DNA from: Somniosus microcephalus
Taxonomy: Eukaryota
Assembly: GCA_052327205.1 (NCBI GenBank)
Contig: CM126211.1
Location: forward strand, 29,016,001 to 29,080,000
Length of the DNA: 64,000 bases
Direction: 5' to 3'
Part shown: positions 1 to 61,029 of the stretch, piece after piece
Position numbering within the stretch: position 1 is the first letter of the stretch
Layout of the letters: every line of letters begins with the position of its first letter
Made by a program: the position numbers and the translations under genes
The notes under the pieces: model-generated
The model's database searches: none
What the model was told of the DNA's origin: nothing
Seen by the model: the letters and a program-made list of their open reading frames with translations, nothing else

Positions 1-1323
1 TTTCAAAAAGCTACACTTCTATGGAAAACAAATTGTGAATTTTAAAGTAAGCAGAGAAATTTTAAAAAGCTAGTGCTCAACTCCCCTCCTGGAATGATAC
101 ATCAGAATAAAGTAAACCAATTTTCAAAAGGCAGCATATCAAATTAAGCTAAGCCATAAAATTTAGTGAACACATGAGTACCAACTGAGTTATTTTGGGA
201 GGCAGAGAAAAATATGAAAAAAACTGATGCTTCTCTCCTCCCAAGAGCATATTTTAAAACCAGTCCACGTAACCCAGAAACCATATTGAGAGATCTTTCG
301 CTGCAACTGGAAAAGATGGAGCAGTAAATGAACATTCAAAATTTGCATTTAGGAAATGCACTGAACCAACCAGTGAAAACCAAAACCTTCAATTAAAAGA
401 ACACAAACTAAAACAAATCAGTGTTAACGCATTAGCAGCATACCAGAATAACTAGCAGTCACAAGATTTATCGCACTATTTGGAACTACAGTGTAATGCG
501 AAATGTAGAAACAATTACACCTTCAATGACATTTTTACATGAATGGTACAATATTACAGTCCCTAGGTATAAATTTTGCATTTCCGCATTTAAATTTATA
601 ATAAATTTCACTAGTTCCAGCTGCATTTAAATGCAGCGGTGTATTTCTCAGTGGGCATTCTTAGCAGAATACAACTGAACTAGGTTTGCCCAGAGAATTG
701 CTATTTTTGTATCGAAAAGCAGCCACTTTATACACTAGGTACAATAATCCTACCAGAGTAATACTTATGGCAAAACAAATGGTTGAGGTGCAAGACTAAA
801 GACTCCATCTATATATACTAATTTCTCCTAAAAAAAGTCATCCATCTCTAACCATTCCCCACCCAAAAGGAGCACTCCTATTTTGCTGATGAAACGGTTC
901 ACACATACACAATATATTCACTAGTTTCTGAAGGACCTTAATGAAGATCCATACACTTATAGAAACACACATGTATATAAGAATATCAATATATTTAGCC
1001 TAGACCACCTCAAGTTTACGATTTCCACCAGCTACAGTATTCACAACTGAATAATGATACTGTGGCTAGAAAAGTTCAGCTAGTGCAATGCCAGTAGTGC
1101 AATGGCTATAAACCACAAGACACTTCACTTCAAATGATGAACTATGCAATGGAAAGCCGGTCAAGGATCATTGAAATTGGATTAGCTTCCTAAATTGCCA
1201 TGCCAAGTGCTTTCACTGTCTGGGATCCCATTCATAAAACGAGTGATCCCTTTAAATATGTTGGAGCTCATTTTAGTACTTGAAGTGATCCTAAATTTAC
1301 ATGATAAAAAACGATTTACTTAC

Positions 1324-1410
1324 AGCCTCTGCTTCTGCCCTCGTCTTGTAAGTAATGACTGCGTGACGAGAGCCGGCGTCAATCTGACAATCATCAATTT
1401 CACCAAATTG
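1324..1410 (-). CDS. RBM26: RBM26 exon 20, RRM2 (QFGEIDDCQIDAGSRHAVITYKTRAEAEA)
   Basis: ctttaag|CAA TTT GGT ... GAG GCT|gtaagt; 87 nt. Confidence 0.93.
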
Positions 1411-2789
1411 CTTAAAGAGAGAAATACAGTAAAGTCTTTTAAGCACTACAATTTCAAATACTGTGTTCATAATCAAACTCTCAGCCTTCTGTTTATTGAA
1501 GGCAATTAACTTAAGAAATGCATTCACCGAGAAATAAAAATGCTGCTGGACATAGTCCGAAACAAACCTTGTGCATAGTAAAATGCTATTATAGCAATCC
1601 TAATTTAGCCCAGACTTTGCAATATCAACGCTTTCCAATTTAGACACATCTGTGGCACGTGCATACCCATTTCATGGGCCGCACTGGATTTTGTGACAAG
1701 TCTTGGCTCCTGGGCTATAGGCCTAGAAAAAGCCTGCCAGAGGTTGGCCTGCAGCACATTTGGCTGGGGAATGCAAAATCTAACAGGGAAGCAGCTCGTC
1801 ATAAAACAGTTAAGTTGTGGAGGCGAGAGGGGCTGTGTCAAACTGAGAGGTAGAGCTGGGTGTCATCAGTGTACATGTGGAAACTGACACTGTGTTTTTG
1901 GATGTCGCCGCTGAGGGGCAACATGCATTCGAGAAATAGGAGGGGGCAATGGATAGTTCCTTGGGGGACACCAGAGGTAACGATGCGGGAGCAGGAAGAG
2001 AAGCCACTGCAGATGATTCTGATTAGATAGGTAAGAATGGAACCAGGTGAGTGCAGTCATGATACTTCAGACCACTCTAGATTGACAAAAATCAATCCAT
2101 GAAGGGAAATTATTGGAACTAGCCGAGAAGTGCAATACAGCTCACTCCAAAGAGCGGTTTAGGACTGGATAATGAAGTTGAAGTAATGATGAATGAATAG
2201 TACAAAGAGAAAAATTGCCAGGAATTATTACAAGGCAGTAACTTCAGAGGGATTTAAACAGTATCAAACAGAGCACAATTGGGCCATTTGGGTGAAAAAA
2301 ATATCTGAATCCAGGCAGGAAATCATTTCTATGCATGTGTGTTTTGTTTTAAATACTGCAGCCTTTGAAAGAGTAATTTTAATTTCCTTCCTGGCAGCAG
2401 GTGTCATGGACAATATAAGCACTTTTGCTGCATACATGTCACTAAGTTTATTAGAAGATAATTAATGATTGGTGAAAAATAATATACATCACATTATAAA
2501 CCAACAATTCAGCATCTGTATTGCCGAGAACAGCAATTACAGAACACCTCTGAATAGAAGAGATTTGATCATCAGATTACAGATCCAGCAGCATAGATCA
2601 TACAAGGTACGCTTGATGGGCTCAATGTCCTTTCCCATTTTTCTTATGTATGGATTGTGTAACTATATACACAACCAAAAATGGTAACTATAAAAACATT
2701 AGAAATGAAGATAAACAATGTTTCTCTTTCTTGAAAGCAATTCACCATCCTCATGCCATATGTGAATGGGACAATCCCTTAGGGGACCA

Positions 2790-3415
2790 CAAGGCTTTTG
2801 TTACAAAGGGATTCGAGTACAAGAGTAAAGAAGTCTTACTACAATTATACAGGGCATTGATGAGGCCACACCTGGAGTACTGTGTACAGTTCTGGTCTCC
2901 TTACTGAAGGAAAGACATACTTGCTCAAGAGGGAGTGCAGCGAAGGTTCACTAGACTGGTTCCTGGGATGAGGGGATGGCCCCGAGAAGAGACTGAGTAG
3001 ACTAGGCCTATATTCCTTAGAGTTTAGAAGAATGAGAGGTGATCTAATTGAAACAACTAAAATTCTTCAGGGGCTTGACAGGGTTAATGCTGGGAAAATG
3101 TTTCCCCTGACTGGGGAATCTAGAACACAGGGTCACAGTCATAGAATAAGGGGATGGCCATTTAGGACGGAGATGAGGAGAAATTTCTTCACTCAAAGGG
3201 TTGTGAATCTTTGGAATTCTCTACCCCAGAGAGCTGTGGCGGCTCAGTCTTTGAGTATATTCAAGAAAGAGGTCGATACATTTTTGAGAATGAAGGGAAT
3301 TAAGGGATACGGGGATAGTGCGGGAAGGTGGAATTGAGGTAGATCAGCCATGATCTTGTTGAATGGCAGAGCAGGCTCGAAGGGCCAAATGGCCTACTCC
3401 AGCTATGTTCTTATG
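2790..3415 (+). mobile_element. CR1 LINE 3' fragment
   Basis: [52 protein letters not shown], tail GGCCTACTCC...TATGTTCTTATG. Confidence 0.9.
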
Positions 3416-3861
3416 AATCCCTGTTCTTGCATGAAGTTTTCATTTCCTGTACCTATGTAGCACTTGACATTATCGAATTTTTTTTTTGAACCGGCTAAAA
3501 ACAATTTGAATGCACCCGGAAAATTATTTTTGTTGGAAAAGAAAAATGTGATACTACACAAGTAACACCGTGTAAAATAACACCCAACAGCAGGCTCAAG
3601 CCCAATGCACTACCCACAGTTGGCAGGATGCAGTTTGTGCTTACTATCTTCTGCATGTCAAGTTCCCAATCTCAAGCTGGTTGCTATGGAAAAGGCACCC
3701 TGCATGTCCAATTTCAGAGCAGCATTGGTAAAGGCCACCGAGCAGATTGAGAAAAGGAAAATCCAAGTCGGGAAGAAAACATCTCAAAAATCTAGATTTG
3801 ACCGAAAGATAATTTGCAAATAATCTTGTATACAAGTTGAGAGAAAACCCCCCCAGTACAG

Positions 3862-4100
3862 AGTGGTGTGGTGGGTTAGACAGTGGCCTGTCACCTTCGG
3901 GACATGGGTTCAAATCCAGTCCAGAAAGTTGGGATAAAAGTCTCCACTATCTGCCGGCTCTGTGAAATGAATTTAGGCAGCCTCAATTTCATTCCCATAA
4001 GTTGTCCCGAATGCAGCACTCATTTTGCCAACCTTACTCAAAGATGGCTAGCAAAGGAAAATTGTCTCACTAGTGCAACAGGGGGTGCGCAGTGCATTAG
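3862..4100 (+). mobile_element. tRNA-derived SINE resembling LF-SINE
   Basis: GCCTGTCACCTTCGGGACATGGGTTCAAATCCAGTCCAG...TGTGAAATGAATT resembles the recalled LF-SINE 5' half. Confidence 0.5.
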
Positions 4101-4240
4101 CTGTGCAATTATCAGGACATGGGCACGTTTGAAGCCCGACTGGGTGCTCCTAGTCTCTCCTGAATGCGATCAAATAACTAAAGATTTCCTGTTCTGTCTG
4201 GTTCAGTACAACAACATCCATCATGTTGACTATAACTTAC

Positions 4241-4444
4241 TGCAAAATGCGGCAGGACTTCATCTTGGTCACTTTCTGAAAAACCAGATATATTCAATGA
4301 CTTTGGACGATGGTCTACTACAGAGTGAAAAGGTACACCCCGGCCTCGTCCTCGATGTCCTCTACCTCGACCTCGGTGTCCACCTCGCCCTCTGGAGTGG
4401 TGCCCCCTTCCACGAACAGAAGAAAGGATCCCCCGTTTGGCAGC
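4241..4444 (-). CDS. RBM26: RBM26 exon 19, RG-rich region and start of RRM2
   Basis: ttgcag|GCT GCC AAA CGG ... TTT GCA|gtaagt; 204 nt; AAKRGILSS...VVDHRPKSLNISGF. Confidence 0.94.
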
Positions 4445-5006
4445 CTGCAACACAAGTATGAACACATAACATGCTCAGACACATTTAGCACGTTTAATGT
4501 TGATTATTAAAAGGGACATCAGGAAAAGCTCAATCCAGTTTTTTTTTATATAAAAAGTGAAATCTCCAAAGCTGCCAAAACTGTTGGGAGTTTAGCAAGA
4601 ACTCCAAGGGGAAGTACTCAGCATAACAAAAACTTCATCTAGCTGCAAAATGTCAAGAGTCACAAAAAATCTACTTGCTAGTTTACTTTATTTATCTTTC
4701 ATATTTAAGTTTTAAAAATGCAACATGACTGGAATGTTGCACTTACCACATCAATTCCCCTCACTTGGATGCACACAAACTTAAACTTGCTAACACTTTT
4801 TTACAATTTAATCCACATTTTTGCCTCAATTTATGCACAAAGTATATAATTAAGGAACATCACATGCTAGCCACCTTGTGGGCGGAAATCACGTTCTTGA
4901 AACTTCGATGAAAAGGTTATCAATAGTCTTGCACAAATAGGTAGATTAGCAAATAACACATTTAGATGACTAGTGTCACAAAATTATTAAAAGCTGTGTT
5001 ACCGTC

Positions 5007-5730
5007 TGTTAGATCAAGGTAATTTCAGTGGACCACACTGATTTGAGGTCAACACACTAAAATAAAAGTTTGCGAGTCCGGTGGTAAGTTTTAAATAGTC
5101 GATTTATTGCATCACTTGATTTACACTGTTTGACTTTCTTCCTCTGCCTGACTTGTGAACAAAATGGCAGGTTTTTATTTCAGGTGGAGCCTGCCCTCGC
5201 TTAATAGTCGTAGGTTTATCGAGTGGCGCCATAATATCGATTTATTTACTTGGGGGTCTCAAGTTGTAGGCTTAATTAAATAACACCGCCGAAGTTAGAG
5301 CTCTACAATGGGATCTCGCCGTCTTACCACCCAGAGGGTTCGCTACCCGGGAGGTTTTTATGAATCAGCAGATGTACCCGCCCCCTTTATAACCATTGGC
5401 TCAGCAGCATGCATGCAGAGTCATGGTTGGTTCAACTACATCACACTGATTGGATCTCTGATACATCAATCATTCCTTTGTTCTCTAGTTAAGCAGAATC
5501 ATCACTTTTAGTTTTAAGTTAAGATCAGCATTTTCATAGTTTTAAGCTAATTCAGCATTTCCATTGTTCTCAGTTTTTAAGTCAGCCGAGGTGACGTTAC
5601 CAGCTGTGATTGGATCTCATACATCACACCATCCTTTGGCACGTGGTCAGCTTAAACATAATCAAATTTCTTTACATTATTAGTTTAATCATATTCAAAT
5701 CTGTTTTATTAAAATATATATTCCCTAACA
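5007..5730 (-). mobile_element. 3' LTR of the endogenous retrovirus (724 bp)
   Basis: Minus strand begins TGTTAG right after polypurine tract AAAGAATCAAAGGGGGGAG (5731-5749) and ends CTAACA; repeated CCAAT boxes, TATAAA at 5386-5391, AATAAA hexamers near 5105, 5175 and 5243. Confidence 0.8.
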
Positions 5731-6059
5731 CTCCCCCCTTTGATTCTTTCAAAAAATTGAATCATTAACATAAAGATTAAAAATATAATCAAATCATTGC
5801 TGTGTTTTGCCACTGTCCGGATCAGTGGCACTGCACAAATTGACATCAACCAGGATTTTACGTGGCCACAGTAAAAGCCTGGTTTTAATAAGTTAATTGA
5901 TTTCATGATCTTAAATTAATTAGTGCATCTTAAAAAGTGGGAGGAACTCCCCTCAGCTTATGGCTTTGAAAAATACATTCAGGTAAAAAGGTAGAAAAAT
6001 TAAAAAGTAGAAAAGATACAAAAATTAAAAAGTAGAAAAGATACAAACTGATCTTGCAG

Positions 6060-7070
6060 CTAAATATAAGTTGTCACATCTTGGCTTACCCATGGGGCAG
6101 CAGCTGCCTGGCGGCAGGTACATTTAATCAACAGAAACACACAATACAGAATTACAATGATTACAAAGAACAAAATTAACCCCTGCACCACTGAAGTCCC
6201 CAGCGAGCCTAGCCATCCAGTTGCCCAATTCCATAAAGTGAAGGGCGGGGGTTGTTTAACCTTTTCTACTTCCTTACGGATATGTTTAGCCAAATTAGTA
6301 ATATCTTCGGAGTTGTCCGGGATATATGTGCAACAGTCAGCTCCGATTAGGGCACATGTTCCACCCTTCTCCGCTAGCAGATAATCTAGAGCCATTCTAT
6401 TTTGTAAGGCAACTGTGCGTATTGCCACCATCTCACTGTTCATTTTACCCAGTGACTCAGCCGTATCATCGGCTACTTCCTCAAGAATCGAGGCTACCAG
6501 CCGAATTTCTTTTATTGTCCTGGCTGTTCCATACCCGGGGAATAGGATAGCAAAGAATTGTTCTGTTTTAGTAATAGCTCTTTCGGATCGATAATGATGA
6601 TTCGCTAGAGAGGGCAAATGGTGAATATATGGCAACACATATGCCAGGTAACATGATCCTGTCCAGCCCCGTGGCAACCAGGGGTATGCTTTGTTGCCAC
6701 AAATAAAGTATGTCCCATTGTACGAGGTGGTTTTATCGACATCAAACCCTGCAGATACCAGGGAATAGTTGAAAGTACCTTTTTGGTTGGCGTATGGGAC
6801 TTGCAGTGTACAACCATAATACTGAGGGGATGGATAACAGGGAAACCAGTTAGCAGTACCAGTTACTGTAAAATTATACGTGCACCGACTAGTGCCTACG
6901 AATATCCCCCTCTTCAAATTCCTTACTAAACATATTGTCCCCGGTAGCCTTTCCATACCTGTGGCCTTAGTGAGGGTGAGGAAGGGAGGCTGTTGGGAGT
7001 GGTCGTACTTTGGTTGGTACCACGCTTTGAAGGTATTCATATAATATCCTCCCGCTACCGTCCAATCCAT
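6060..7070 (-). CDS. env: Endogenous retrovirus gamma-type envelope ORF (N-terminally truncated SU plus complete TM), 336 aa
   Basis: SU motif GTYFICGNKAYPWLPRGWTGSCYL; cleavage site RSER (6579-6590); fusion peptide AITKTEQFFAILFPGYG; heptad repeat; ISD LQNRMALDYLLAEKGG (6360-6407); CX6CC CALIGADCC; hydrophobic TM helix; short tail. No signal peptide or CXXC. Confidence 0.93.
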   Translation of the reverse strand: MDWTVAGGYYMNTFKAWYQPKYDHSQQPPFLTLTKATGMERLPGTICLVRNLKRGIFVGTSRCTYNFTVTGTANWFPCYPSPQYYGCTLQVPYANQKGTFNYSLVSAGFDVDKTTSYNGTYFICGNKAYPWLPRGWTGSCYLAYVLPYIHHLPSLANHHYRSERAITKTEQFFAILFPGYGTARTIKEIRLVASILEEVADDTAESLGKMNSEMVAIRTVALQNRMALDYLLAEKGGTCALIGADCCTYIPDNSEDITNLAKHIRKEVEKVKQPPPFTLWNWATGWLGSLGTSVVQGLILFFVIIVILYCVFLLIKCTCRQAAAAPWVSQDVTTYI

Positions 7071-7899
7071 TTCAAGGGCAAATGGTAGGGATTTTAAAAT
7101 GTTCTACTGTTGTGTCTATGCATTACTAATGATGCACAACCATTTCCAAACTGTGTTCTGATGGCAAACTTCACAGCGACATCAGTTTGGCAGATTTACA
7201 CTACACATCTTTAAGTGGTGTAGCAAGACTATCAGAAAATATGCAATAGAAATTACACGCTTTTCTGATCATTACATTCAACTGGCAGACAATGCTGCCA
7301 TCTCCTGTAAACCCCTATTATTGCAGCAAGTTCCTTGGTTTTTATTGTTTTACCAAGTTATGATTTGAGACAGCCTATAAGCTGAAATTGAGATTAACAG
7401 AAATCTAACAAACAGCCTTGTATCCAGTAAATCAAGCAGAGGTTGTGTTGGAAATATTAAGCTACATGTGGTGAAGTCTTGCCTCAGTAGCCTAAACTTA
7501 GCTCCAATCCAGAGGCCAGCAAACTACATATACCCAATTCATACAAAAAAAAGTAAAATATTGGGTGTGTACACAGCTAAATAAATTTGCACAGCATTCC
7601 TTTTATCAGAAATTCTGCCAGATACTCTAGAAACTTTGGCAAAAAGATTTCCAGAATAATTATCAGCATGATGGTCAGCAAATGAGCCACAGCTAGAAAT
7701 ATGTTTGCATTTTTCAAAGAAAACCTCAAGATTATTTTGTAAGAACCTCAAAAATAGATTTAGAAATGCGAACTACAATCTGGAGGGAAGAATGGAAAAC
7801 TTTGTTAACAGTAGGCAGAGAACATACTCGTGCATTAATATGAATATGAAAGCATGCAATTTCTTAATACCTTTGAATTACTATGGTCATTATTCCTAC

Positions 7900-8004
7900 C
7901 TCGAGCTGAAGCTCGTTGTATTTTTTTCTAAGTTCAGTGATATCTTCTCCAGCCTGCACTTTCTTGTACAAATCCAGCTCGGTGTCTAGTAGTTCTCTTT
8001 GCAT
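7900..8004 (-). CDS. RBM26: RBM26 exon 18 (MQRELLDTELDLYKKVQAGEDITELRKKYNELQLE)
   Basis: ttttatag|ATG CAA AGA ... CTC GAG|gtagga; 105 nt. Confidence 0.94.
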
Positions 8005-8843
8005 CTATAAAAAGAAAAATCCAGCATTTGCTTAAATCCAAATAACTATCGAACTGCAAGCCGATAATCTACTTGCGGGGAATCAGGTAATCGCTGCAAA
8101 TCAAAATGAAGCAGCAAGATTACAGGCTGGCAATTCACTCCCTCAGAATATATGTGGTCATTTTTGGTTAATACACTCAGTTTTGTAAGGAACAGAAATG
8201 GGGGACACATTTCAATTTCACATTTTGCAGTCTGTTTAACAAAAAAAGTGATTAACCATTTGCACTGTGATGGATAAAATGATCACTCAGGAGCTTCACT
8301 AATGGCACAGCGGATAAAAGCGGCATCAGTTTAGAACAGACCAGAAAATCCAATTTGAAGCGGAGTTGACTGATCTGAAACAGGATAGCAACTCAAGCAG
8401 TATGGGGAGCAGAAAAATCAAGTCATGACGAATTTGGAAAGGTGCTATAGGATACCCAGCAAGCGGTAGCACCTTCAGTCAAGGAAAGAGGAAAAAATGA
8501 TGGGTTAAAACCATTAGAAACAGTAATAATTTGGGAAGGGGCATGGTCTGAATGGCTATTTTTCATGCTATACTTAGTATTTATTTTTTCTGTTGGCTTA
8601 CTAGTTAAAAAGTGTTGTGCAGGGACAGTCATAAGCAATGGTTTCTGGTTTGCGGAAATGCTCAACGGCTATATATACACTTTAATCTAAATTCTGAACT
8701 TTGTTTTATACGTTTATAAACATTCGGGAAAACAAATAAAAACACAAGATTAAACTTTCCTTGTTCACCACCTTCATTTTTTGAACATGGAAAGTTATTC
8801 TTAAGAAACACAACATCCAAAAAACACCAACAAAATGCAATAC

Positions 8844-9011
8844 CTGAGCTTTGGTTTTCACTGTTTTGGGAAGAGATGAGCCTGTTCCACTTGCTTTCAG
8901 TTCATCCTGTAGTTTGGTTATACTCTTAGTTAAGGCCTGCAGTGTTTTCATTATTTCTGCTTTATCTTCGGATTTCATTTTTTTGTTTTTCTCCAGCTTT
9001 GCTATCAAGAT
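8844..9011 (-). CDS. RBM26: RBM26 exon 17 (ILIAKLEKNKKMKSEDKAEIMKTL...VKTKAQ)
   Basis: atttag|ATC TTG ATA ... GCT CAG|gtattg; 168 nt. Confidence 0.93.
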
Positions 9012-9597
9012 CTAAATATGGATTCAAAAAGTCAAGATGAGACAGACAGAAGTGCCCAGGATATAACTTTCTCAGACAAGATTTTTTAAGCAAAAGCAAA
9101 GCACATTATATTATACTTTGATTGATCAGACTACCCTTGGTTCCCTGATCAAGCATGTGGTTTTGTATATTCACTTCACATTTAATCAAAATTTTGAGAA
9201 GACAGTGCACAATTTTAATTACACAGTACCAATGGGGGAACACACTGGATTGACTGGTACGCTAACATTTGGTGGGCTGCAACAATTTATTATAGTATTG
9301 TTAGACCAGAGCTTTGTGAGTAGATGGGGAGAAAATAAAAGGGTTGGATCAGTATCTTTGGTGCAGCTGTTAATTTGATTCTCCTTCCTGCGTTACTCCT
9401 CAGGTTCGGGGGGGTTTACATCTCAGTCTATAAAGGGGTCTCAGACTGCCCAGTACTTTCAAAGTTCCTTAAGAGCAATCCAGTAATTCAAACCATGTAT
9501 GTTAATTCTGGTTTTCCAACATTAGGCAATTAAGCCAGTATTTACGAGAGGATCAGATGTAAAACATATTTAGGTGATACTTCTCAACAGAAGATAG

Positions 9598-10390
9598 ATT
9601 ACATCGGATATACGGCACAGAAACAGGCCATTCGGCCCAACCAGTCCATGCCGGCATTTACGCTCCACTCGTCCGCCTCCAGTGTTTCCTAATCTAATTC
9701 TGTCAGCATAACCCTCCGTTCCTTTCTCCCTCATATGCTATCAAGCCTCCGCTTAAATGCATCTATACTATTCGCCTCAACCACTCCCTGTGGTAGCGAG
9801 TTCCACATTCTCACCACTCTCTGGGTAAAGAAGTTTCTCCTGAATTCTCCATTGGATTTATTAGTGACGGTCTTATATTGATGGCCTCTAGTTACACTCT
9901 GCCCCACAAGAGGAAACACACCATCTTTTTTTTAAATATTCATTTGTGGGATGTGGGCGTCGCTGGCAAGGCCAGCATTTATTGCCCATCCCTAATTGCC
10001 CTTGAGAAGGTCTATCAAAACCTTTCATAATTTTAAAGACCCCTCAGATCACCCCTCAGCTTTCTTTTTTCAAGCGAAGAGACTCAGCCTGTTCATCCTT
10101 TCCTGATAGTGATTTGTGTATTTGTACTCCGATAGATCCCTTTGCTCCTCCACCCCACCCAGACTCGCACCCTCCAAGTGATAAGTGACCTCCTTATTCG
10201 TCCTACCAAAACATAACACCTCACATTTATTTGTGTTGAACTTCATTTGCCAATTATATGGCCATTCTGCAAGTGTATTAATGTCCTCCTGTAATTTGTT
10301 GCAGTCCTCCTCAGTATTGACTATCCCCCCAATTTGGTGTCATCCACAAATTTAGAAATTGTGTTTTTGATTCCGAAGTCTAAATCGTTA
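9598..10390 (-). mobile_element. CR1 LINE 3' fragment with a nested tail of another non-LTR family (about 9925-10010)
   Basis: RRNFFTQRVVRMWNSLP on minus strand; the nested GCTGGCAAGGCCAGCATTTATTGCCCATCCCTAA recurs near 17735 and, more diverged, near 56250. Confidence 0.85.
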
Positions 10391-10633
10391 ATATAAATTG
10401 CAAACATGTGTGTTAAAAGAACAAAGGGGGGGGGAGAAAGCAGGGAAGGCCCTGCAATTTCCTACAGAAATAGTTTTGACAAAATGGCACTGAACTGGAT
10501 TGAAATGCTAACATGCTTACATTTTATTACTCTAAACAGAGCAGGGGGGCAGGGTAAAAGACTCCCATGAAACAAAAAGCATAACCTCGCTTATGGATTA
10601 CCCTCCCAATCTGATTCATGTGGTAGTACAGAA

Positions 10634-10925
10634 GAACATAAGTAGTAAGAGCAGGAGTAAGCCTGATCATCGACCTCAACTCCACTTTCCCGCCCGATCT
10701 CCATTCCCCTAGAGTCCAGAAATCTATCTATCTCAGCCTTGAATATATTCTCTGACTGAGCATCTCTGGGGCAGAGAATTCCAAAGATTCACAACCCTCC
10801 GAGTGAAGAAATCCCTCCTCATCTCAAGTCTTAAATGGCCTACCCCTTATCCTGAGACTATGCCCCCTAGTTCTAGACACTCCAGCCAGGGGAAAACAAC
10901 CTTTCAGCATCTACCCTGTCAATCC
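10634..10925 (-). mobile_element. CR1 LINE 3' end
   Basis: Reverse complement of CR1 ORF2 end and 3' UTR (GAATTCTCTGCCCCAGAG, TACTCCTGCTC). Confidence 0.8.
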
Positions 10926-11650
10926 TACAAGAGGCTACAGTGACTTAACGCAGGCAAAGCATAGAATAAAGCTTTTGCCCATCACTCTCTTGCTGCCCCG
11001 GATTCTTGGTAGAAGAGGCATTTGAATTCTGCTGGTGCAGCTTAGAATTCACTACAGCTGTTTTCATATTACTTTTGATGTGTGCAGCAGAAACACATGC
11101 AAGCCAAAATTAAGATTATTTTTTAATTTAACACAAGTACAGAAAAAACACTTTTTTCCAGTTGAATCTTCCTGATTACTGCCAGTTTTCCTGAGATTGG
11201 GAAACGCAGTATTCCAGCACTGCAGAATCTCTTTAGCAATGCAATGATGTTGGGTAGCTGCTACAATGGATAAAGAAGTGACTGCGTGCTCATAGGCAGA
11301 AAGTTATCAATGGCTGCGGACCTGCTTAAAAACCAGTTACCAGTGGTGTCCCCCACAGATCGTCATTAGGGCCTCTGCTCTTTCCTATCTATATTAAACG
11401 ACCTAGATGAAGGTTTGCATGTGCATACTGAACTGTCATAACCAGCCTGTACCCGCACAATAGACCAGGATCCACTTTGCAGCCAGTTCACACGGAGACT
11501 GGTTCCACTACTCAAACATAACGGAGAGCAGCATACAGTGCAATTAAAAAAAATATATAAAATGGACTACATGTACATCCCCAAATTACATTCCCCTGTG
11601 AAAATAGAAGATTATCCTGATCAAAGAAAAATAGATGTCAGACTAAATAC

Positions 11651-11725
11651 CTTTTGGGTTTCTATGTGTTTTTCTAAAATCTCTCGTTTCTTTTTTCTCA
11701 CATCTTGCTGAAGTCGAAACGTATC
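11651..11725 (-). CDS. RBM26: RBM26 exon 16 (DTFRLQQDVRKKKREILEKHIETQK), coiled coil
   Basis: tttacag|GAT ACG ... CAA AAG|gtattt; 75 nt. Confidence 0.92.
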
Positions 11726-12255
11726 CTGTAAAATCATCATACACTTAAGAACCATGGCCAACTGGAACATAACCAAAGAGGAAAGCAAAAATCCAAAGGG
11801 AAAAAAAGAATGTAAACCTTTTGGAAAAACACAATGTTTGTAAGCAATACGTAATTTTCATCTGTAGGTTACTGGGGAAAAAATGTAGGCCCTCAGGTTT
11901 TAGGTTAGGCAAAACGACTGGCAACATGAGCTTTTGTTGGCTGTTCTGGTGCCAAGTATTATTGAAAAACTAAGTCAGCTTAAGGGGAAATGCTCAGCTG
12001 TTCAAGCTAGTTGTGCGCCTCCAGGATGCAGGTCTGTATCAGAGTGCGTTGTGTCTCTTTTTTCCTTTCCATGAAAACTTGTTTTTTTTTTTTTTTTTAA
12101 ATATTGAAGCGAACAAAATTATATTTTGATAACATAGCACCTTAGTTTTTTTCTCCAGTAAATCTTGATACATTTAATTCTGAATAGGTGTATGCCAAAG
12201 AAAACCCAACCAAATTAAGTTCCAATTATATTTATAAAAACTACGTAATCTACAT

Positions 12256-14668
12256 TGCTCAGTGAGGAGAATTTCCTTGACCAGTATGTTCTTGGCCCAA
12301 CTAGGAAGGAGGCATTGCTGGATCTGGTGCTGGGGAACGAGGTGGACCAGGTCGACCAAGTGTCTGTGGGAGAACACTTGGGTACGAGTGATCATCGTAT
12401 AAGATTTAGATTAGCAATGGAGAGGAGCAAGGAACAATCGAGAGTTGAACTTCTAAACTAGAATAGGGCTAACTTCAATGGGATGCAAAAGGATCTAGCC
12501 GGGGTAAAATGGAACCAAAGACTGACAGGAAAAACTGCAACTGAACAATGGGTGATCTTTAAGGAGGAGATGTTCCAAGTACAGGCTAGGTACATTCCAA
12601 GAAGAGGGAAGGGTAAGGGAATCAAAGCAAGGGCTCCTTGGATGACAAGGGAGATAGAGAAGATGAAACAAAAAAAGAGGGTGTATGATGAATGTCAGGT
12701 GAATTCTTCAAGGGAGAACCAGACCAAATACAATAAGTTGAGAGGGGAAGTGAAGATGAAAATAAGATTGCAAAGAGAGAATATGAGTGTAGAATGGCCA
12801 ACAGTAAGTGGGTAGTAAGAGGCGGGATGGGGCCTATTAGGGACAAAGGTGATATATGCTTAGAGGCACAGGGCAAGGCTAGAATACTCCGAGTACTTTG
12901 TATCGGTGTTTACTAAGGAGGTGGATGCTGACAAAATATCAGTAGAAGTGGAAAAGGTAGAAGCAATGGAAGGGGTGAAAATTGATAAGACAGGATGTAC
13001 TAGAAAGGTTGTGTATGCTTGGAGTGGATAAGTTGCCTGGTCCAGATGGCTTGCATCCCAGGTTGCTAAGGGAATTGGGGGAGGAGATAGCGGAAGGATT
13101 TGCCATAATTTTCCAATCTTTCCTAGATGTGGGGGAGGTGCCTGAGGATTGGAAAGTGGCAAATGTGACACCATTGTTTAAGAAAGCGTGCAAGGCCAAT
13201 CCTAGTAACTACAGGCCAGTCAGTTTAACATCAGTGGTGGGTAAAGTTTTAGAAACAATAATCAAAGAAAAAATTAACGGACACTTGGAAGATGATAAGC
13301 TAATTAAGGAGAGCCAACGCGAATTTGTAAAAGGCAGATCGTGTTTGACTAATCTAATTGAATTTTTTGATGAAGTAACAGGGAGGATTGATGAAGGGAA
13401 TGCAATGGATGTTGTCTACATGGATTTTAGGTAGGTGTTTGACAAAGTACCACATAGAAGACTGGTTAACAAAATTGAGGCTTGCGGAATAGGTGGTTCA
13501 GTGGCAGCTTGGATAAGGAATTGGCTTAAGGACAGAAAACAGCAAATTGTGGTAAACGGCTGTTTTTCAGACTGGAAGATGGTAGACAGTGATGTTCCCC
13601 AAGGGTCAGTGCTGGGGCCACTGCTTTTTTTGATAAATAAATGACCTGGATATTGGAATACAGAGTAGAATTTCTAAATCTGTCGATGACACCAAACTTG
13701 GGGGTGTGGCAGTGAGGATGATACTAATCGACTGAAACAGGACATAGAAAGGCAAGCAGAGTGGGCAGATGGAATTTAATACAAGTGTGAGGTGATGCAT
13801 TTTGGCAGAAGGAACTGGGAGAGGCAATATACACTTAATGGCACAGTTTTAAAGAGTGTGCAGGGACAGAGGGACCTGGGAGTTAATGTGCAACGGTCCC
13901 TGAAGGTGGCAGGACACATTGAGAGAGTGGTTAGCAAAGCATAGAAACATAAAAGATAGGAGCAGGAGTAGGCCATTCGGCCCCTCGAGCCTGCTCCGCC
14001 ATTCAATGCGATCATGGCTGATCATCCAAATTCAGTACCCGGTCCCTGCTTTCTCCCCATACCCCTTGATCCCTTTAGCCTTAAGATGGGATCTTGGGCT
14101 TCATAAATATTGAGCACAAAAGTAGAGAAGTTATGCTGAACCTTTATAAAGCGCTGGTTAGGCCACAACTGGAGTATTGCGTCCAGTTCTGGTTACCACA
14201 CTTAGGAAGGATGTGAAGGCCCTTGAGAATGTGCAGAGGAGATTTACCAGAATGGTTCCAGGGATGGGGAAAGCTACAAGGACAGGTTGGAGAAGCTGGA
14301 TTTGTTTTCATCAGAGCAAAAGGAGGTTGAGGGGTGATTTGATGGAGGTGTACAAGATTGTGATGAGGTTTGGATAGGCTAGATGGGGAAAGGCTGTTTC
14401 CACTAGTGATGGTACAAGGACTAGGGGACACAGATTTAAGGTTTGGGGCAAGAGATACAGGGGGGTGTGAGGAAAAACTATTTTACGCAGCAAGTGGTGA
14501 GGACCTGGGGCTCAATGTTTTCAAGGGGAAACTGGATCAGCACTTCAGGGAAATAAACCTGCAGGGCTACAGGGTTAGAGCGGGGGAATGGGACTGACTG
14601 GATTGCTCTACAGAGAGCCGGCACCGACTTGATGGGCTGAATGGCCTCCTTCTGTGCCGTTATGACTA
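12256..14668 (+). mobile_element. CR1 LINE, long 5'-truncated decayed copy with nested inverted CR1 tail (13941-14083)
   Basis: PTRKEALLDLVL, PGPDGLHPRLLREL, NYRPVSLTSVVGK, VPQGSVLGPLLF, RPQLEY and CR1-type 3' UTR; many stops and frameshifts. Confidence 0.92.
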
Positions 14669-14744
14669 TGAGGTCAGCAGTTAGGGATAGGATGTTTAAC
14701 TTGTCACTGTTTAGCTGTTTAAACAGTTGCACAGTGGGGGCACG

Positions 14745-15190
14745 AAAAGAAAGACATGTTTATATAGCGTCTTTCACAACCACAGGACATCCCAAAGCAC
14801 TTTACAGCCTTTTTGAAGTATTGTCACTGTTATAATGTAGGAAACGCGGCTGCCAATTTGCACACAAGCTCCCACAAAGAGCAATGTGATAATGACCAGA
14901 TAATTTGGTTTTATGTTGATTGACGGATAAATATTGGCCAGGACACCGGGGATAACGCCCCTGCTCGTCTTCGAAATAGTGCCATGGGATCTTTTACATC
15001 TACCTGAAAGAGCAGACGAGTTTTAACGTCTCATTTGAAAGACTGCACCTCCGACAGTGCAGCACTCCCTCAGCACTGCACTGGGGTGTTAGCCTAGATT
15101 TTTGTGCTCAAGTCTCTGGAGTGGGACCTGAATCCACAACCTTCTGACTCCGAGGTGAGGGTGCTGCCAACTGAGTCACGGTTGACACTT
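14745..15190 (-). mobile_element. tRNA-headed Deu-domain SINE (SacSINE1/AmnSINE1-related)
   Basis: A/B box head, core GAGGTGC...ATGAGACGTTAAA...GTAAAAGATCCCATGGCACTATT, L2-type tail GCTATATAAA. Confidence 0.8.
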
Positions 15191-15459
15191 AATGGCGCCA
15201 AACAGGAGCCAGATCAAAAATGGGGGAAAAATTGAATGAATTTCACATCTAAAATATAATGCTGTTGATTTTATATTAGAATTTAAAATGATGATTCGCT
15301 GGCAACTTAAGAAGTCCAAATTTCTGTCACCTTATTTGTGTGAGCAAATATATGAATTTCCACCCTGAAACACTCATTAGCCAAGTTCAAACCAGATGAA
15401 CATGCTCAATAGTATGTACATAAATCACAAATCATACAACGGTCATAAACCCAACAAAC

Positions 15460-15579
15460 CTGTTTTCTTTTGGGTGTTTCTGTAGAATCTGATGCAACAG
15501 TACCTAATGATTTTTGCACTGCTTTTAGGGCAGCAGGATTGTAGACAGTTTTTGTAAGGCCTGTTGTAGTTGATAACAC
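15460..15579 (-). CDS. RBM26: RBM26 exon 15 (VLSTTTGLTKTVYNPAALKAVQK...PKRKQ)
   Basis: ctgcag|GTG TTA TCA ... AAA CAG|gtttgt; 120 nt. Confidence 0.93.
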
Positions 15580-15942
15580 CTGCAGCAGAGTTTCATTTTC
15601 CATCGTAAAAGGAAATTAGATGAAGATAAAAGAAAAACATTTTTACAAGAACAGCAATTTATTATAGCCAAGATCATATAGAATGTCTTACACCAAGACA
15701 AATAACTTGCGTTAACTATTAAGACAGTATTTGATATTTGTAACTAGTGTTTCCATAAGTTGGTAAAAATGCTAATGCACATAAAGTTTGTTCTTGGATG
15801 CACAAAGAACAAGAATTAACTAACTGTGGGAATGCTGTCAAGAGTAGAATGGGACCTAATCCTGAAAAGTATTTGCTTTTAACACAATGTTCAAAGACTG
15901 AAAACAGCAGTGGTTCCAATACTACCATCAACTAAACTCTAC

Positions 15943-16017
15943 CTTTTCAGTTGGAACAGGTTCTGTGCGTTTAGTTGCAAAGCCTAGTCGATCTTTAACT
16001 GACAGCTTACTTGCATT
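15943..16017 (-). CDS. RBM26: RBM26 exon 14 (NASKLSVKDRLGFATKRTEPVPTEK), probable cassette exon
   Basis: ccctcag|AAT GCA ... GAA AAG|gtagag; 75 nt, phase 0-0; matches human NVTKLSVKDRLGF. Confidence 0.88.
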
Positions 16018-17689
16018 CTGAGGGATAAAGAAAACACATTACAAACGATCTTTCTCATTCTTCAATAGAAGTTTAACCTCCATTTAGTCTGATTTCCTCA
16101 TGCATTAGGGCAATCACCCAGGGACATTTCCCCTTTAGGAAATCTACTACCTCTTGGGTTCCCATGAGGGCTCATCAAATTGGGTCACTAAGATGAACTG
16201 TACAATACGGTTGGACAGGACTGGGCTCAGCTATGATTTCCCCCCTCCTCCCCCGATAATGAATTTTAGCCATTTGGGTAAGGTGCTGGAGGATGCCCAG
16301 CATTTATGGAACTGTACCCCAAGAAGGGAAGAGAGGGGAGAAAAATTGCCAGAGGAAATCGACAAGAAAAAAACCCACTCCCATTCGATCCTCTCTTTGT
16401 TGTAGTATGTAAAACTTCACTCATTCACTTTCAAGTTTCGTCCAAGAGAAAGGAGCACAAGAACTGTAAGACAAAGACATAACGACTGAAAGAATTACTG
16501 TGAAGAAAGGAAAAAAACAGGAAGGGGAATCTGCAGAGGCTGAACAATGAGAAGGCATGCAACCATTGTTTATTCAACCTCCATGTACTTTGGTGGATTT
16601 CCAAAGACTTGAAGTATTCAATAGGTGAGCTTGGAAAAGCACGGTCAAATCTTCTGTTATCATAGGCTGGCAACGCAAGACACTAAATCTAGTGAAAGCA
16701 TATGTAATGTTCCAACCTTACAAATGCCACAGATAGAAATCCCTTCAAATTAGCCAAAGAGGTGGCACAACAGGAATAGAATGATCTTCAAGATCCACCA
16801 AGGATTAAAGGTCATGTTCCACCAGGAAATAAGGATCGCTGCTACTCACATTGCTAACCGCTTAGTAATAGATTCACCTTAGGCTTTGTTGCCGAATGAC
16901 AAGAACTGCCTAAATTAATCTTTTCGCACTGTCCAGTTAAAATTTTAGCAGCACGTACAACCAAAAAATGATCTTCAAAAGGAAACACGAGAAGGTTGAC
17001 AGAACTTGTGCACCATATTCTCAACATTAAAAGAAATAGGAATGTTGAGCCCTGTGGATTGTCCTTCCCACATGCTATCTATCACAAATGGCAAATCTTG
17101 CAAAGTCATGGTGCAATCTTTCCCATCCTCTTTCAAATCTTGGCACTGGGGCATGAAATAGCCATTACACAGATCTGGAGTAAACTCTCAGAACTCAATT
17201 CATACAGATAGGATACGATCATAAGCATGCCATACGACAGTGAATTAAAGTGGATGTTGTGGCATAAGTGAACAAAATACTCCCACAGTCTTGTGATCCT
17301 CCAGATGCCAACAACAACTACCAGTGGCTGCTCGAAAGTTTAACTTTTCAACATCCACACATTCAGTGGCGAGCTCTGGCAGCTGCTGGGAGAAGTCTGA
17401 CCGCTTTAGTCTGGAGATGTTCTCACAAGTGATCTTGATGAGCTGACATCCAAAGCCAGAAGCTCCAAGAATCAAGTCTCCCCTGCACAGAGGCACATGG
17501 AGACCATCATCACCTCCTTGCAATTCTCTGAAGGATGGTATTCAGGGAAATTGAAGAATGTGTACAAGAATCCACACTCTATAAATCTGCCCAGGACCAC
17601 AAGGGGCTACAATGGCAGGAGTCACAGAAAGTCTTACAATTAGGACCATGAAAATCAGCCAGTTATGAAGCCCAAAATGATTTTTTAAA

Positions 17690-17720
<31 letters not shown>

Positions 17721-17841
17721 CGTTTATGGGAATCGCTGGCAAGGCCAGCATTTATTGCCCATCCCTAATATTATGTAGAATAATTATGCACAACTAAGCC
17801 TACAACTTTGATTCCAACTGGAGCTTGGCACACAATGCATA

Positions 17842-17982
17842 CATCACATCGTCAGGGAGATACCATTCTCTCTCCCATCACATCGTCAGGGAGATAACAT
17901 TCTCTCTCCCATCACATCGTCAGGGAGATAACATTCTCTCTCCCATCACATCTTCAGGGAGATAACATTCTCTCTCCCATCA
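17842..17982. repeat. Minisatellite, 4 x 34 bp
   Basis: Unit CATCACATCGTCAGGGAGATAACATTCTCTCTCC, two substitutions across four copies. Confidence 0.95.
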
Positions 17983-18905
17983 GAAACTAAACTCCTACAA
18001 ATGACCAGCTGTGTTTAACAGTTGAGATTTCTCTAAAATAATTAAAAGTCCCTCAACGTGAGAACAGTTCTATGATCTACCCCTTCTCCTCCACTTCCTT
18101 CAAAAATGACTGCATGTCAACCACACATGGAATTTCTCATGCCCAGAAAATTCTCAAAAACGATGCCATTTCATGAAGACCCAAGTGCTGAATTGAGACT
18201 AAATAGTATTATCCTGAATTGGTAATGAACTCCACCAATTATTACCTAACATGGGCGGATAACTAATACACAGAACACATCCTTCAAATTCACTACAGCT
18301 GGCTAGTCTCCAGACAGCACTGCTCGAATAATCGGTAGAAGAGTTACTATCATTTATTTCTTCACGAAAACATTTAGACCCACATTAACTAGTGAGTAAA
18401 AGATTCTCAGAGCAACTTGTAGCGCAAGGTCAAAAAGTTTCCAGCATCAGATTAAACTGGATTTTTGGCAACAAAAAAACCCAAAAAAAAAGACAGCCAA
18501 CTCGAGAGTCTGGAGAAGCTTGTGGGGGCAGGGGAGAAACATTAACATATGAATGTTAAAGAGTAATATAGTCAAAGTTACGCTGCAGTTTTAGAGTGAA
18601 TAGTTAGTGGGGGGAAACATTTTCAACGGAGACAACAGCAGAGAGCTCCTCCTGATAAGAGGAAAGAAACAAATGCAAGTCTCAGCAGGTTATACTTCTA
18701 CTCAGTGAAGAGATCATCTAACATTAAAATGAGGGAATTTGAGAAGGCAATTGCTCTGTAGAGAAATACGTGTAGTATCACATGGTCTGTGGAGGCCGAA
18801 TGAATAGTAGGGTCTGTACCAGAACTGGTAAATTGCAACAGAAATAATACTTTTGTTATGAATTAAAATATTTATCATTGTTAAACAAACCTTTACTGTA
18901 CATAC

Positions 18906-19046
18906 CTGAATGCTGGCTATGGGAATGACCTGAGTTTGTGTGGGTTCCAAATTTCCTTGTGGTAGAGGCCCCAGTCTGTCCTTCACAGATTGTTTGACAA
19001 CTGTGAAAGAGGGTTGCTTAACTGGCTGTTGCAGTCCACAAACCAC
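18906..19046 (-). CDS. RBM26: RBM26 exon 13 (VVCGLQQPVKQPSFTVVKQSVKDRLGPLP...IASIQ)
   Basis: ttttttctaag|GTG GTT ... ATT CAG|gtatgt; 141 nt; exact acceptor less certain (an in-frame CAG lies 21 nt further in). Confidence 0.82.
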
Positions 19047-20299
19047 CTTAGAAAAAAGACAAGTGGAAAAAAATAATAACAGCCTAGAAAATAAAGATAA
19101 TGTTACTCACTTGAACTCCCAAGACATACTTCAAATTCGGTTGTAAGTATGCCTTAATGATCGCTCTACATTATAACAATTGCTCTACATTAGACAAACA
19201 GCTGACATTTAATCACCGGCAAAGGGTTACATTTCGCACTTTGAATGTTGCCATGTCTATTTATGAACCTTACGTCAGATCACCAGATCTATATCCAATA
19301 TCATCAGCTATACAGCTGGAATACGGTGAATTGGGAGAAACAGCAATTTTGCCCTTTGCTGTTGGTGATTTTTTGTCAATGCAAGGGATGTCGACACCGT
19401 GGTATAGAATACTTTCCTCGTTTCAGGCACCCACTGTCTATCTCGAGCACTCCTGGGTTAGGTATAGCATATACAAGAGAGTTCATTCCACTCTTCCCAG
19501 ACAAAATACTTCAACCGCAAATTCAGTAGTCCACCCCTAATATCTTCTATGTTTCTATAGGGATCAAGGGATATGGGGAGAAAGCAGGGACAGGGTACTG
19601 AGTTTGGATGATCAGCCATGATCTCATTGAATGGCGGAGCAGGCTCGAGGGGCCGAATGGCCTACTCCTGCTCCTATCTTCTATGTTCTATGTTTCCGCA
19701 GCGCCTCTCACATGATACATTATCCAAACTCTGACTGAGGGAAACAGATTTGTGCTGTGGCCCAATGTTTATATTTCATCCATGCCAGTCTGTGCTGTTT
19801 TCAAACTTGCTCTCAATATTACATTTCAAAATGGTTCCTTGTTTAAAAAATTATGTGGGCTCTTGACAGCTCAGCAATTAAGTGAGGCATTTAGACCAAG
19901 ACCATCACAGATTTTATCCTCAATTCAGTTAACAGATCTCAAATCGATCGGATGGTAGAGGCACTGTCCTATTTCACCCCTGCGACTAGAATGGGACAGA
20001 AAGGGTGGGGGGAAATGTGGTCATGTTTCTTTACCCTGACCACAATCCCTGCTTGAAGTGCATGTAGGGGCATCAGGTGAAAACAGCATTAGGCTCCCCC
20101 ATGATAAAATAGCCTCACTTACTGCTGAGGCTTACTTGGACCAGGTACTGAAGGATGACTGACACCCAATGAACCATGCCCCAGCAAGGAGCCGATAGCT
20201 TAAGCGGAGAAAAAATATATATACTGTTTTAAAGAAAGTTACACATGCGCAGCATGAGATTTTAACCAATTAAAGATTTCAGTAGATGAAAACAGTGAA

Positions 20300-59871: not shown

Positions 59872-61017
59872 GTAACAACAGCAAATGCTGGAAAAACTCA
59901 GCAGGTCAGGCAACATCTGTGGAGAGAAATTTGAGTTGACGTTTCGGGTCGAACCCTTCTTCAAAACTGGAAAGAAAAGAAACTAGATCGAAGGCAGGGC
60001 TGCGATCGGACAAAAGAATAAAAGAAACAAAAGAAGTAAAAGAGATTAGAAGCTAGACGAGATGGTAATAGGCTAAGATTAGGTGTAAAGTGTACTGGCA
60101 GGGCAAGAGATAGCTGCCAGGTGTGAGAGAGAAACAAAAGGGGGGGGAAAGGAGTGGAAAAATTACAGGAAAAAATGAAATAGGGGCCGAGCTTATGATC
60201 TGAAATTGTTGAACTCGATATTGAGTCCGGAAGGCTGCAGAGTGCCTAATCGGAAGATGAGGTGCTGTTCCTCGAGTTTACGTTGAGCTTCCGTGGAACA
60301 ATACAAGAGGCCAAGGACGGTGAGGTCCGAGTGGGAATGGAGCGGTGAATTAAAATGACAGGCGACCGGAAGCTCGGGGTCACCCTTACGGACTGAACGG
60401 AGGTGTTCCGCAAAGCGGTCACCCAATCTGCGTTTGGTCTCCCCAATGTAGAGGAGACCGCATCGTGAGCAGTGAATACAGTATACTAGATTGCGAGAAG
60501 TACAAGTAAATCGCTGTTTCACCTGGAAGGGGTGTTTGGGGCCCTGGACAGTGGGAAGGGGGGAGGTATAGGGGCAGGTGTTACATCTCCTCCGCTTGCA
60601 CGGGAAGGTGCCAGGCGAAGGGGAAGGGCTGTTTGGGGTGATAGAGGAGTGGACTAGGGTGTCTCGGAGGGAGCGGTCCCTGCGGAATGCTGAAAGGGGA
60701 GGGGAGGGGAAGATACGTTTGGTGGTGGGATCACTTGGGAGGTAGCGGAAATGTGGGAGGATGATCCGTTGAATGTGGAGGCTGGTGGGGTGAAAGGTGA
60801 GGACAAGGGGAACCCTATCGTGGTTCCGGGAGGGAGGGGCAGGGGTGAGGGCAGAAGTGCGGGAGATAGAACTGACACGGCCGAGGGCAGTGTCAACCAC
60901 GGTAGAGGGGAATCCTCGGTTGCGGAAAAAGGAAGACATGTCTGAAGCACTGGCGTGGAAGGTGGCATCGTCGGAGCAGATACGGCGGAGACGGAGAAAC
61001 TGGGAGAATGGAATAGA
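59872..61017 (-). mobile_element. Penelope-like retroelement, 5'-truncated (RT thumb plus GIY-YIG endonuclease, 3' tail)
   Basis: ORF 60193-60939 with CKRRRCNTC and LVYCIHCSRCGLLYIGETKRRLGDRFAEH...GLN; the same frame continues upstream as IPFSQFLRLRRICS. Confidence 0.9.
59934..59968 (-). ncRNA. Minimal type I hammerhead ribozyme motif in the Penelope tail (C3U variant)
   Basis: AGUU-UUGAAGA-A-GGGU UCG ACCC-GAAAC GUC-AACU: stem I, stem II and core present; palindromic ACGU in place of stem III. Confidence 0.6.
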
Positions 61018-61029
61018 TTGTAGTGGTCA

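Follow-up and report, generated by a model that had tools for sequence, protein, structure and literature searches.

Among described systems, the nearest to the env sequence analysed here are the chondrichthyan syncytin-like Env candidates, 295 of which have been reported from 16 of 36 chondrichthyans, with none in placental sharks (Proudley et al., 10.64898/2026.05.06.723177). These candidates resemble the present copy in having a gamma-type Env with ISD, CX6CC and TM and in coming from class I (epsilon-like) ERVs of sharks (10.64898/2026.05.06.723177). The preprint filters for a frame of ~400 aa or more and a signal peptide (10.64898/2026.05.06.723177), whereas the copy studied here has neither and no adjoining pol. 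In rockfish, candidate co-opted env genes without predicted signal peptides are described, and one of them, percomORF, is intronic (PMC12813294, as excerpted). The genes percomORF, Seb-env3 and Seb-env4 are similar to the present case in that an Env frame stands without gag-pol, several lack a predicted signal peptide and percomORF lies in an intron, but the same excerpt gives purifying selection over many species and tissue-specific expression for them, and percomORF is single-copy (PMC12813294); the copy analysed here is one of at least 121.

A second group of systems concerns proviruses that lack a 5' LTR. In an HTLV-1 provirus of this kind a short repeat abuts internal pol/env sequence, which the excerpted review reads as loss before integration (PMC6950816), and 8 of 12 cases are given in the corresponding passage of a further review (PMC3185741). 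These HTLV-1 proviruses and our element are alike in an intact 3' LTR, the lack of a 5' LTR and a repeat of integrase length set directly on env; they differ in that HTLV-1 is a somatic, leukaemia-selected deltaretrovirus with a 6-bp repeat, whereas ours belongs to a class I ERV of the germline, has a 5-bp repeat and shows no sign of selection. One-ended integrations of HIV mostly leave long duplications or deletions and not the normal repeat, according to the relevant passage of PMC5041404, and normal-length repeats are given as the mark of coordinated joining in the excerpt of PMC2857682. A truncated HERV-K with a 111-bp duplication is also on record (PMC5488345, in extract). Finally, the elephant shark CmiERV lineages II and III, as presented in part of PMC4422223, have an MLV/epsilon-like pol, a downstream env, many fragments and a slow LTR clock; they belong to another host and another family, and are likened to our element by description.

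It is already known that shark genomes are rich in env-bearing ERVs, and the element in the window, by which we mean the whole stretch of 64,000 nucleotides analysed here, is one truncated copy. We interpret it as a defective class I ERV copy in intron 18 of RBM26 whose 5' part was likely gone by the time integration was complete and which likely serves no function in the host (probability a little under 0.6). That it is a functionless relic, by one route of truncation or the other, we hold to be highly probable, and we regard loss before or during integration as about twice as likely as later deletion.

The Env frame and its start codon

The minus-strand frame 7103-6060 runs for 347 codons without a stop in the ORF translation, is bounded upstream by an in-frame TAG (7106-7104) and has its first ATG at 7070-7068, from which 336 aa can be read. 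Its viral part (6063..7056, minus strand; 331 full codons) comprises a C-terminal portion of SU, the motif RSER at the SU/TM boundary (6579..6590, minus), a fusion peptide, an ISD with K at position 14 followed by CX6CC (6330..6407, minus; ISD itself 6407-6357), a predicted transmembrane helix (6126..6182, minus) and a short tail that ends at the TAG stop codon (6060..6062, minus). The helix is the most hydrophobic 19-mer of the frame and begins at residue 297, with a hydropathy of 3.33 across its 19 residues that qualifies it as a C-terminal membrane anchor. In Pfam the frame matches TLV_coat (E=5e-15), its top matches among solved structures are syncytin-2 and syncytin-1 (~7e-14), and sharks provide its top homologues in the protein database (53-61% identity); most database homologues are shark proteins named 'syncytin-like' or 'PABLB Env-like' (34-66%). 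The strength of the gamma-type match is far beyond chance, and the lack of stops in the frame is within chance expectation. The preliminary description, made from the window alone, had proposed a stop-free 336-codon gamma-type env frame containing a partial SU, fusion peptide, ISD with K14, CX6CC and TM helix, and all of these parts are found.

The features that define a gamma-type Env include an ISD followed by CX6CC in TM, and a signal peptide and CXXC are needed for Env secretion and the SU-TM bond, as stated in the excerpted review of these proteins (PMC9967133). The window frame has the ISD and CX6CC in the expected order in TM, and lacks both the signal peptide and the SU CXXC of a complete gamma-type Env: a CXXC and a hydrophobic N-terminus were looked for in the frame and neither is present, which agrees with what had been noted at the outset. 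All seven paralogous frames examined are longer by 129-149 residues and have both a hydrophobic N-terminus and a CXXC. The boundary motif RSER departs from the furin pattern K/R-X-K/R-R and satisfies the minimal R-X-X-R alone. Lysine or arginine at ISD residue 14 is associated with lost immunosuppression.

The host gene is RBM26 (95% vs a shark RBM26), transcribed from the same strand as env, and the element sits in its coding intron 18, with coding exon 18 (7900..8004, minus) upstream and coding exon 19 (4241..4444, minus) downstream of the insertion. Exon 8004-7900 is the 18th of 20 RBM26 tblastn segments within the window, so the intronic location first proposed is correct. Of 19 other loci from the DNA search, 18 align up to window position 7056-7059 and then run on with env sequence that is missing here, while window 7040-7890 is single-copy in the genome and is present as continuous intron in relatives without the insertion. 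Because viral homology ends at 7056-7059 and the flank is single-copy, host intron DNA (7063..7106, minus) is the source of the ATG at 7070-7068 with its Kozak context, and of the in-frame upstream TAG at 7106-7104. The start codon of the env frame is therefore host intron DNA and not viral: the ATG in good Kozak context that had been pointed out does exist, but beyond the end of viral homology. An in-frame ATG ahead of the first stop would occur at 109 of 679 positions of the intron.

Neither gag, pol nor a 5' LTR adjoins env, 7040-7890 being single-copy, just as had been described for the stretch up to exon 18 at 7900; a repeat search of window 1-20000 gave no second LTR, and no promoter for the env frame was found upstream. 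As the frame lacks a promoter, its transcription would depend on a retained intron or a cryptic start, and the protein, if made, would be without a signal peptide, CXXC and ~130-150 N-terminal residues. Since signal peptide and CXXC are missing, a surface Env would not be expected.

Element boundaries and the route of truncation

The element measures 2,050 bp and is made up of the env part, a viral 3' untranslated region (5742..6059), a polypurine tract (5731..5741) and a 3' LTR of 724 bp with TG...CA ends (5007..5730), all on the minus strand; sister LTRs are 538-546 bp long. The downstream copy of a 5-bp target-site duplication (5002..5006, minus) follows directly after the terminal CA of the LTR (5730-5007), which had been reported to survive and does, and the upstream copy lies at 7058..7062 (minus). 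Six bases past the LTR (5001-5006) recur exactly at 7057-7062, abutting the first viral base, and we read five of them as the 5-bp repeat of the family; the sixth, 7057, is ambiguous, as it may extend the repeat, begin the lost 5' LTR or be a substitution. The combination of TG...CA LTR, polypurine tract and short target-site duplication is that of a class I ERV. Inside the LTR lies a ~170-bp copy of the proviral leader (5179..5348, minus), 97% identical to the leader of another copy, placed just after a TATA-like word and bordered on either side by short homologies; in none of the other 39 scored LTR matches does this leader sequence lie inside the LTR.

The repeat length of the family was taken from a survey of LTRs at 29 loci (6 solo LTRs, 3 5' LTRs, 13 3' LTRs and 7 unresolved). 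An exact 5-bp repeat flanks five of the six solo LTRs, the sixth having no repeat, and among proviral pairs the repeat is exact in five and has one mismatch in two. Two copies of a more distant subfamily have a 4-bp repeat.

Four DNA read sets, from organisms A, B, C and E, were compared at the locus. One contig of organism E omits exactly 2,056 bases, i.e. the 2,050-bp element and one 6-base copy, and the empty site of organism C is identical to it; by this comparison the host DNA on both sides of the insertion is complete. Organisms A and B each provide one contig that bridges the env junction, and the junction is identical in the two. No empty allele of A or B is listed among these contigs, which drop rare variants. 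The locus thus shows a repeat of normal length against internal viral sequence with no loss of host DNA, as in the 5'-LTR-less proviruses.

A 5' truncation with a short duplication is typical of LINE-made copies too, and a LINE-made retrocopy of an env mRNA would account for both. The element, however, ends at the CA of U5 directly against the repeat and has no poly(A), includes the whole of U3 and the polypurine tract, and is flanked by a repeat of the length made by the family's integrase, while an assembly artefact is contradicted by independent contigs of two organisms that bridge the env junction. The CA end, the family-length repeat and the bridging contigs largely refute both of these readings, which we consider most improbable.

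Because both 5-bp repeats survive and no host DNA is missing, the 5' part was likely gone before or during integration. The preliminary description, which had seen a provirus with its 5' part deleted and no LINE retrocopy, was right to prefer a provirus to a retrocopy; the survival of both repeats would place the loss earlier than a deletion of integrated DNA. We suggest that a faulty reverse-transcription product lost its 5' part and had its leader miscopied into its own LTR; the truncation and the leader piece in the LTR would both fit error-prone reverse transcription. Such defective viral DNA would have been inserted into intron 18 with the normal 5-bp stagger of the family; the left end of that DNA would lie inside env or retain no more than one LTR base. 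The insertion may have been tolerated because the intron is still removed by splicing, and drift would since have added ~7 private substitutions. Against this, the viral sequence does not start with a TG/CA end, so that a direct use of an internal site by integrase is conjecture.

The other route to the same relic would be the normal integration of a full provirus followed by a chromosomal deletion that starts with the first 5' LTR base and reaches into env. A normal 5-bp repeat is, on this account, simply the product of concerted two-ended integration, base 7057 could be the first LTR base, there is a 2-base homology at the env/host joint, many deletions and nested insertions are found in sister copies, and the leader piece in the LTR implies earlier access to a longer template. 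It would, however, take an unlikely coincidence for a random break to fall within one base of the LTR end; breaks no more than 20 bases from that end are present in 3 of 17 copies, and the junction is identical in both carriers, A and B. We therefore regard later deletion as possible but doubtful.

The 17 elements are those with a known downstream 5-mer, the window copy included and L024/L025 counted as one. Six have a long 5' LTR start, eight have no assignable upstream end and three break near the terminus; no repeat was found at the upstream limit of L021, L023, L090, L091, L092, L094, L096 and L097, a 5-mer match upstream in L092 being dismissed because viral homology goes on past it. These three keep an intact repeat and have their break no more than 20 bases from the terminus of the 5' LTR: they are the window copy (0-1 base), L095 (a hexamer that agrees with the LTR start in 5 of 6 bases; at ~8531-8542, oriented, with its 3' LTR in L088) and L027 (~17 bases; at 2638-2800, oriented); the empty-site comparison covers the window copy, and the breaks of L095 and L027 are read from the sequence of the copies themselves. 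It is conceivable, and no better than tentative, that the family repeatedly entered the germline as one-LTR proviruses with a left end of 1-17 LTR-terminus bases set on internal sequence. Such proviruses would be a germline fossil counterpart to those of HTLV-1 without a 5' LTR, and in the window copy the truncation would have happened to bring env into frame with a host intronic ATG, a starting state for env capture. If near-terminal breakpoints prove common, ERV fossils would offer a large natural sample of one-LTR provirus formation.

Age of the insertion and the retrovirus family

Substitutions in the flank amount to 0.47% between the window and B, 3.5% to C and 5.0% to E, and of 921 env sites of the window copy 7 carry private substitutions (0.76%), which fits an insertion after the split from C and before that of A and B. 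With the shark rate of 2.2e-10 per year assumed by Han 2015 (PMC4422223, in extract), the insertion would be 23-36 My old; with 7e-10 per generation, the rate measured in the epaulette shark according to the excerpt of PMC10587355, its age would be 7-11 million generations. The insertion is young in sequence, not necessarily in years, and the 'young elasmobranch ERV lineage' of the preliminary description stands in that relative sense only, given 23-36 My at the assumed rate.

In the shark's own genome, a DNA search (40 of 1,541 candidates scored) returned 53 matches and a protein search (120 of 3,666 candidates scored) at least 121 env matches, the window copy among them, so the env that had been called an orphan is without gag and pol locally but has many relatives. 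By a hand tally from the match table, 19 of the best 34 non-self matches are stop-free (291-328 aa, 77-95% identical), in a ranking that favours unbroken copies. Among 20 copies fetched with 10 kb of context, nine have a single open frame across the homologous stretch, as does one of the six closest, which are 95.6-98.3% identical to the window copy in env. The full furin pattern is found in 12 of the 20 and RSER, with identical residues, in the six closest, while two of the 20 have other motifs; K14 and CX6CC are present in all 20. RSER and K14 were thus rightly read from the window, but they are inherited within the subfamily and are uninformative about this locus. A 12-bp tandem unit at window 6839-6850 occurs once here and in distant copies and twice in the closest ones, an in-frame difference.

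Close copies have MLV-like RNase H, rve and MLVIN_C domains directly upstream of env, and the RT/RNase H of the pol of a more distant subfamily has its best match in MLV/XMRV (E=4e-118). We classify the window element from these sequence relationships as a fragment of a class I (gamma/epsilon-like) ERV family, whose complete LTR pairs differ by ~0.7-3%. The 5-bp repeat, together with Gypsy-like frames upstream in two loci, raised the possibility of a Ty3/Gypsy backbone for env; it was rejected because the pol next to env is MLV-like and includes MLVIN_C, and because the frames of Gypsy-like, DDE-transposase and LINE type either lie apart from the env-linked pol or interrupt it.

Three observations concern the family at large. 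Copies L021-L028 and L029-L040 are 88% alike in env, yet neither their LTRs nor their internal regions are related and their repeats measure 5 bp and 4 bp respectively, which suggests that ERV lineages have exchanged env. L024 and L025, ~0.85 Mb apart on opposite strands of one contig, are near-identical and have a flanking tandem repeat and a nested insertion in common; judged by these shared features they are a segmental duplication rather than two integrations. L027, L028, L092, L093, L094 and L097 have the same LTRs and an internal region without intact pol, several of them without env, and this sub-lineage apparently consists of non-autonomous deletion derivatives that were themselves copied.

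Selection, transcription and host function

Between subfamilies dN/dS is 0.25-0.45, the mark of viral replication, and pairwise values for the window copy against its six closest relatives range from 0.35 to 1.22. Private changes of the window env were counted without L025, which nearly duplicates L024; two are synonymous and five non-synonymous, and their ratio of 0.77 falls inside the 0-1.55 range of 15 other copies (pooled ~0.47). These seven changes, two of which adjoin the 12-bp repeat and may be alignment noise, fit omega 1 (p=0.67) and omega 0.3 (p=0.28) alike; no purifying signal beyond that of sister copies is seen in them (n=7), and they fit drift while being too few to exclude selection. 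A dN/dS near 1, which the preliminary description had named as adverse to co-option, is compatible with these changes. The probability of no stop arising with 7 substitutions is 0.76, and as ~7 substitutions are too few to make a stop likely, the open frame is explicable without selection. This is a caution for syncytin screens in slow-evolving sharks, where an open env without gag-pol can be shared by sister species: with only ~1% of sites changed, such a frame is expected from drift alone.

Two shallow RNA runs labelled organism A, of unspecified tissue, were read to 24% and 31%, giving 53 and 140 reads at the locus. Splicing of RBM26 is normal in them, exon 17 being joined to exon 18 in 4 and 7 reads and exon 18 straight to exon 19 in 4 reads of one run, and no read falls on 7152-7807 at an RBM26 exon depth of 1-9x. 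Reads on env and the LTR bear the letters of other copies (10 of 10 at 6952, 6969 and 7000; 8 of 8 at 6074 and 6092), and no locus-specific env read is present in these two runs, a result made weak by the same exon depth of 1-9x.

The element shares its strand with RBM26 and contains eight poly(A)-type hexamers, and could in principle act through RNA signals, either by early RBM26 ends in the LTR or by an exon 18-env fusion, RBM26-Env. The sole acceptor that would give an in-frame fusion is the AG at 7105-7104, in frame with exon 18, but only 7 of the 20 bases upstream of it are pyrimidines and all other in-frame AGs lead into TAG. With canonical joins 17-18 and 18-19 the only ones seen, we judge this reading very unlikely. 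Fusion splicing itself was rejected for its weak acceptor and lack of supporting reads.

The remaining possibility is a co-opted, probably non-fusogenic env, as raised in the preliminary description, which would serve as an immunomodulator or restriction factor and be translated from the ATG that the host supplies. The frame is open with its ATG in good context, five of the six closest copies are interrupted, and the insertion is present in two organisms: restriction to one species had been named as a finding that would count against co-option, and it does not apply, since A and B carry the insertion and C and E lack it. There are also shark env candidates with expression and synteny in print, whose minimal R-X-X-R is satisfied by RSER (10.64898/2026.05.06.723177), and candidates without a signal peptide in the rockfish excerpt (PMC12813294). 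The second adverse finding that had been named, near-identical multicopy relatives, is nevertheless what the genome contains, in the six copies at 95.6-98.3%; with at least 121 matches, many of them stop-free and longer, the locus is not low-copy. Promoter, signal peptide and CXXC are all missing, RSER and K14 are not specific to the locus, the private dN/dS of 0.77 is no lower than in sister copies, and the two shallow runs hold no locus-specific RNA. The frame moreover falls outside the length and signal-peptide filters of the shark preprint, the candidates of which are absent from placental sharks (10.64898/2026.05.06.723177). An env that a shark had co-opted together with a start codon from the host would, if true, be of real interest, but the present evidence does not lead there, and we think co-option at this locus highly improbable.

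Three further features of the window lie outside the element. On the minus strand, 60193-61026 holds a 277-codon open frame that ends in a C-rich, endonuclease-like segment and that we take to resemble a Penelope-type element. A tandem array with a 34-bp unit in ~4 copies occupies 17842-18011, in an RBM26 intron. The segments 13946-14078 and 19555-19687 form a 133-bp inverted pair, 95% complementary, and are probably two opposed LINE 3' ends around RBM26 exons.
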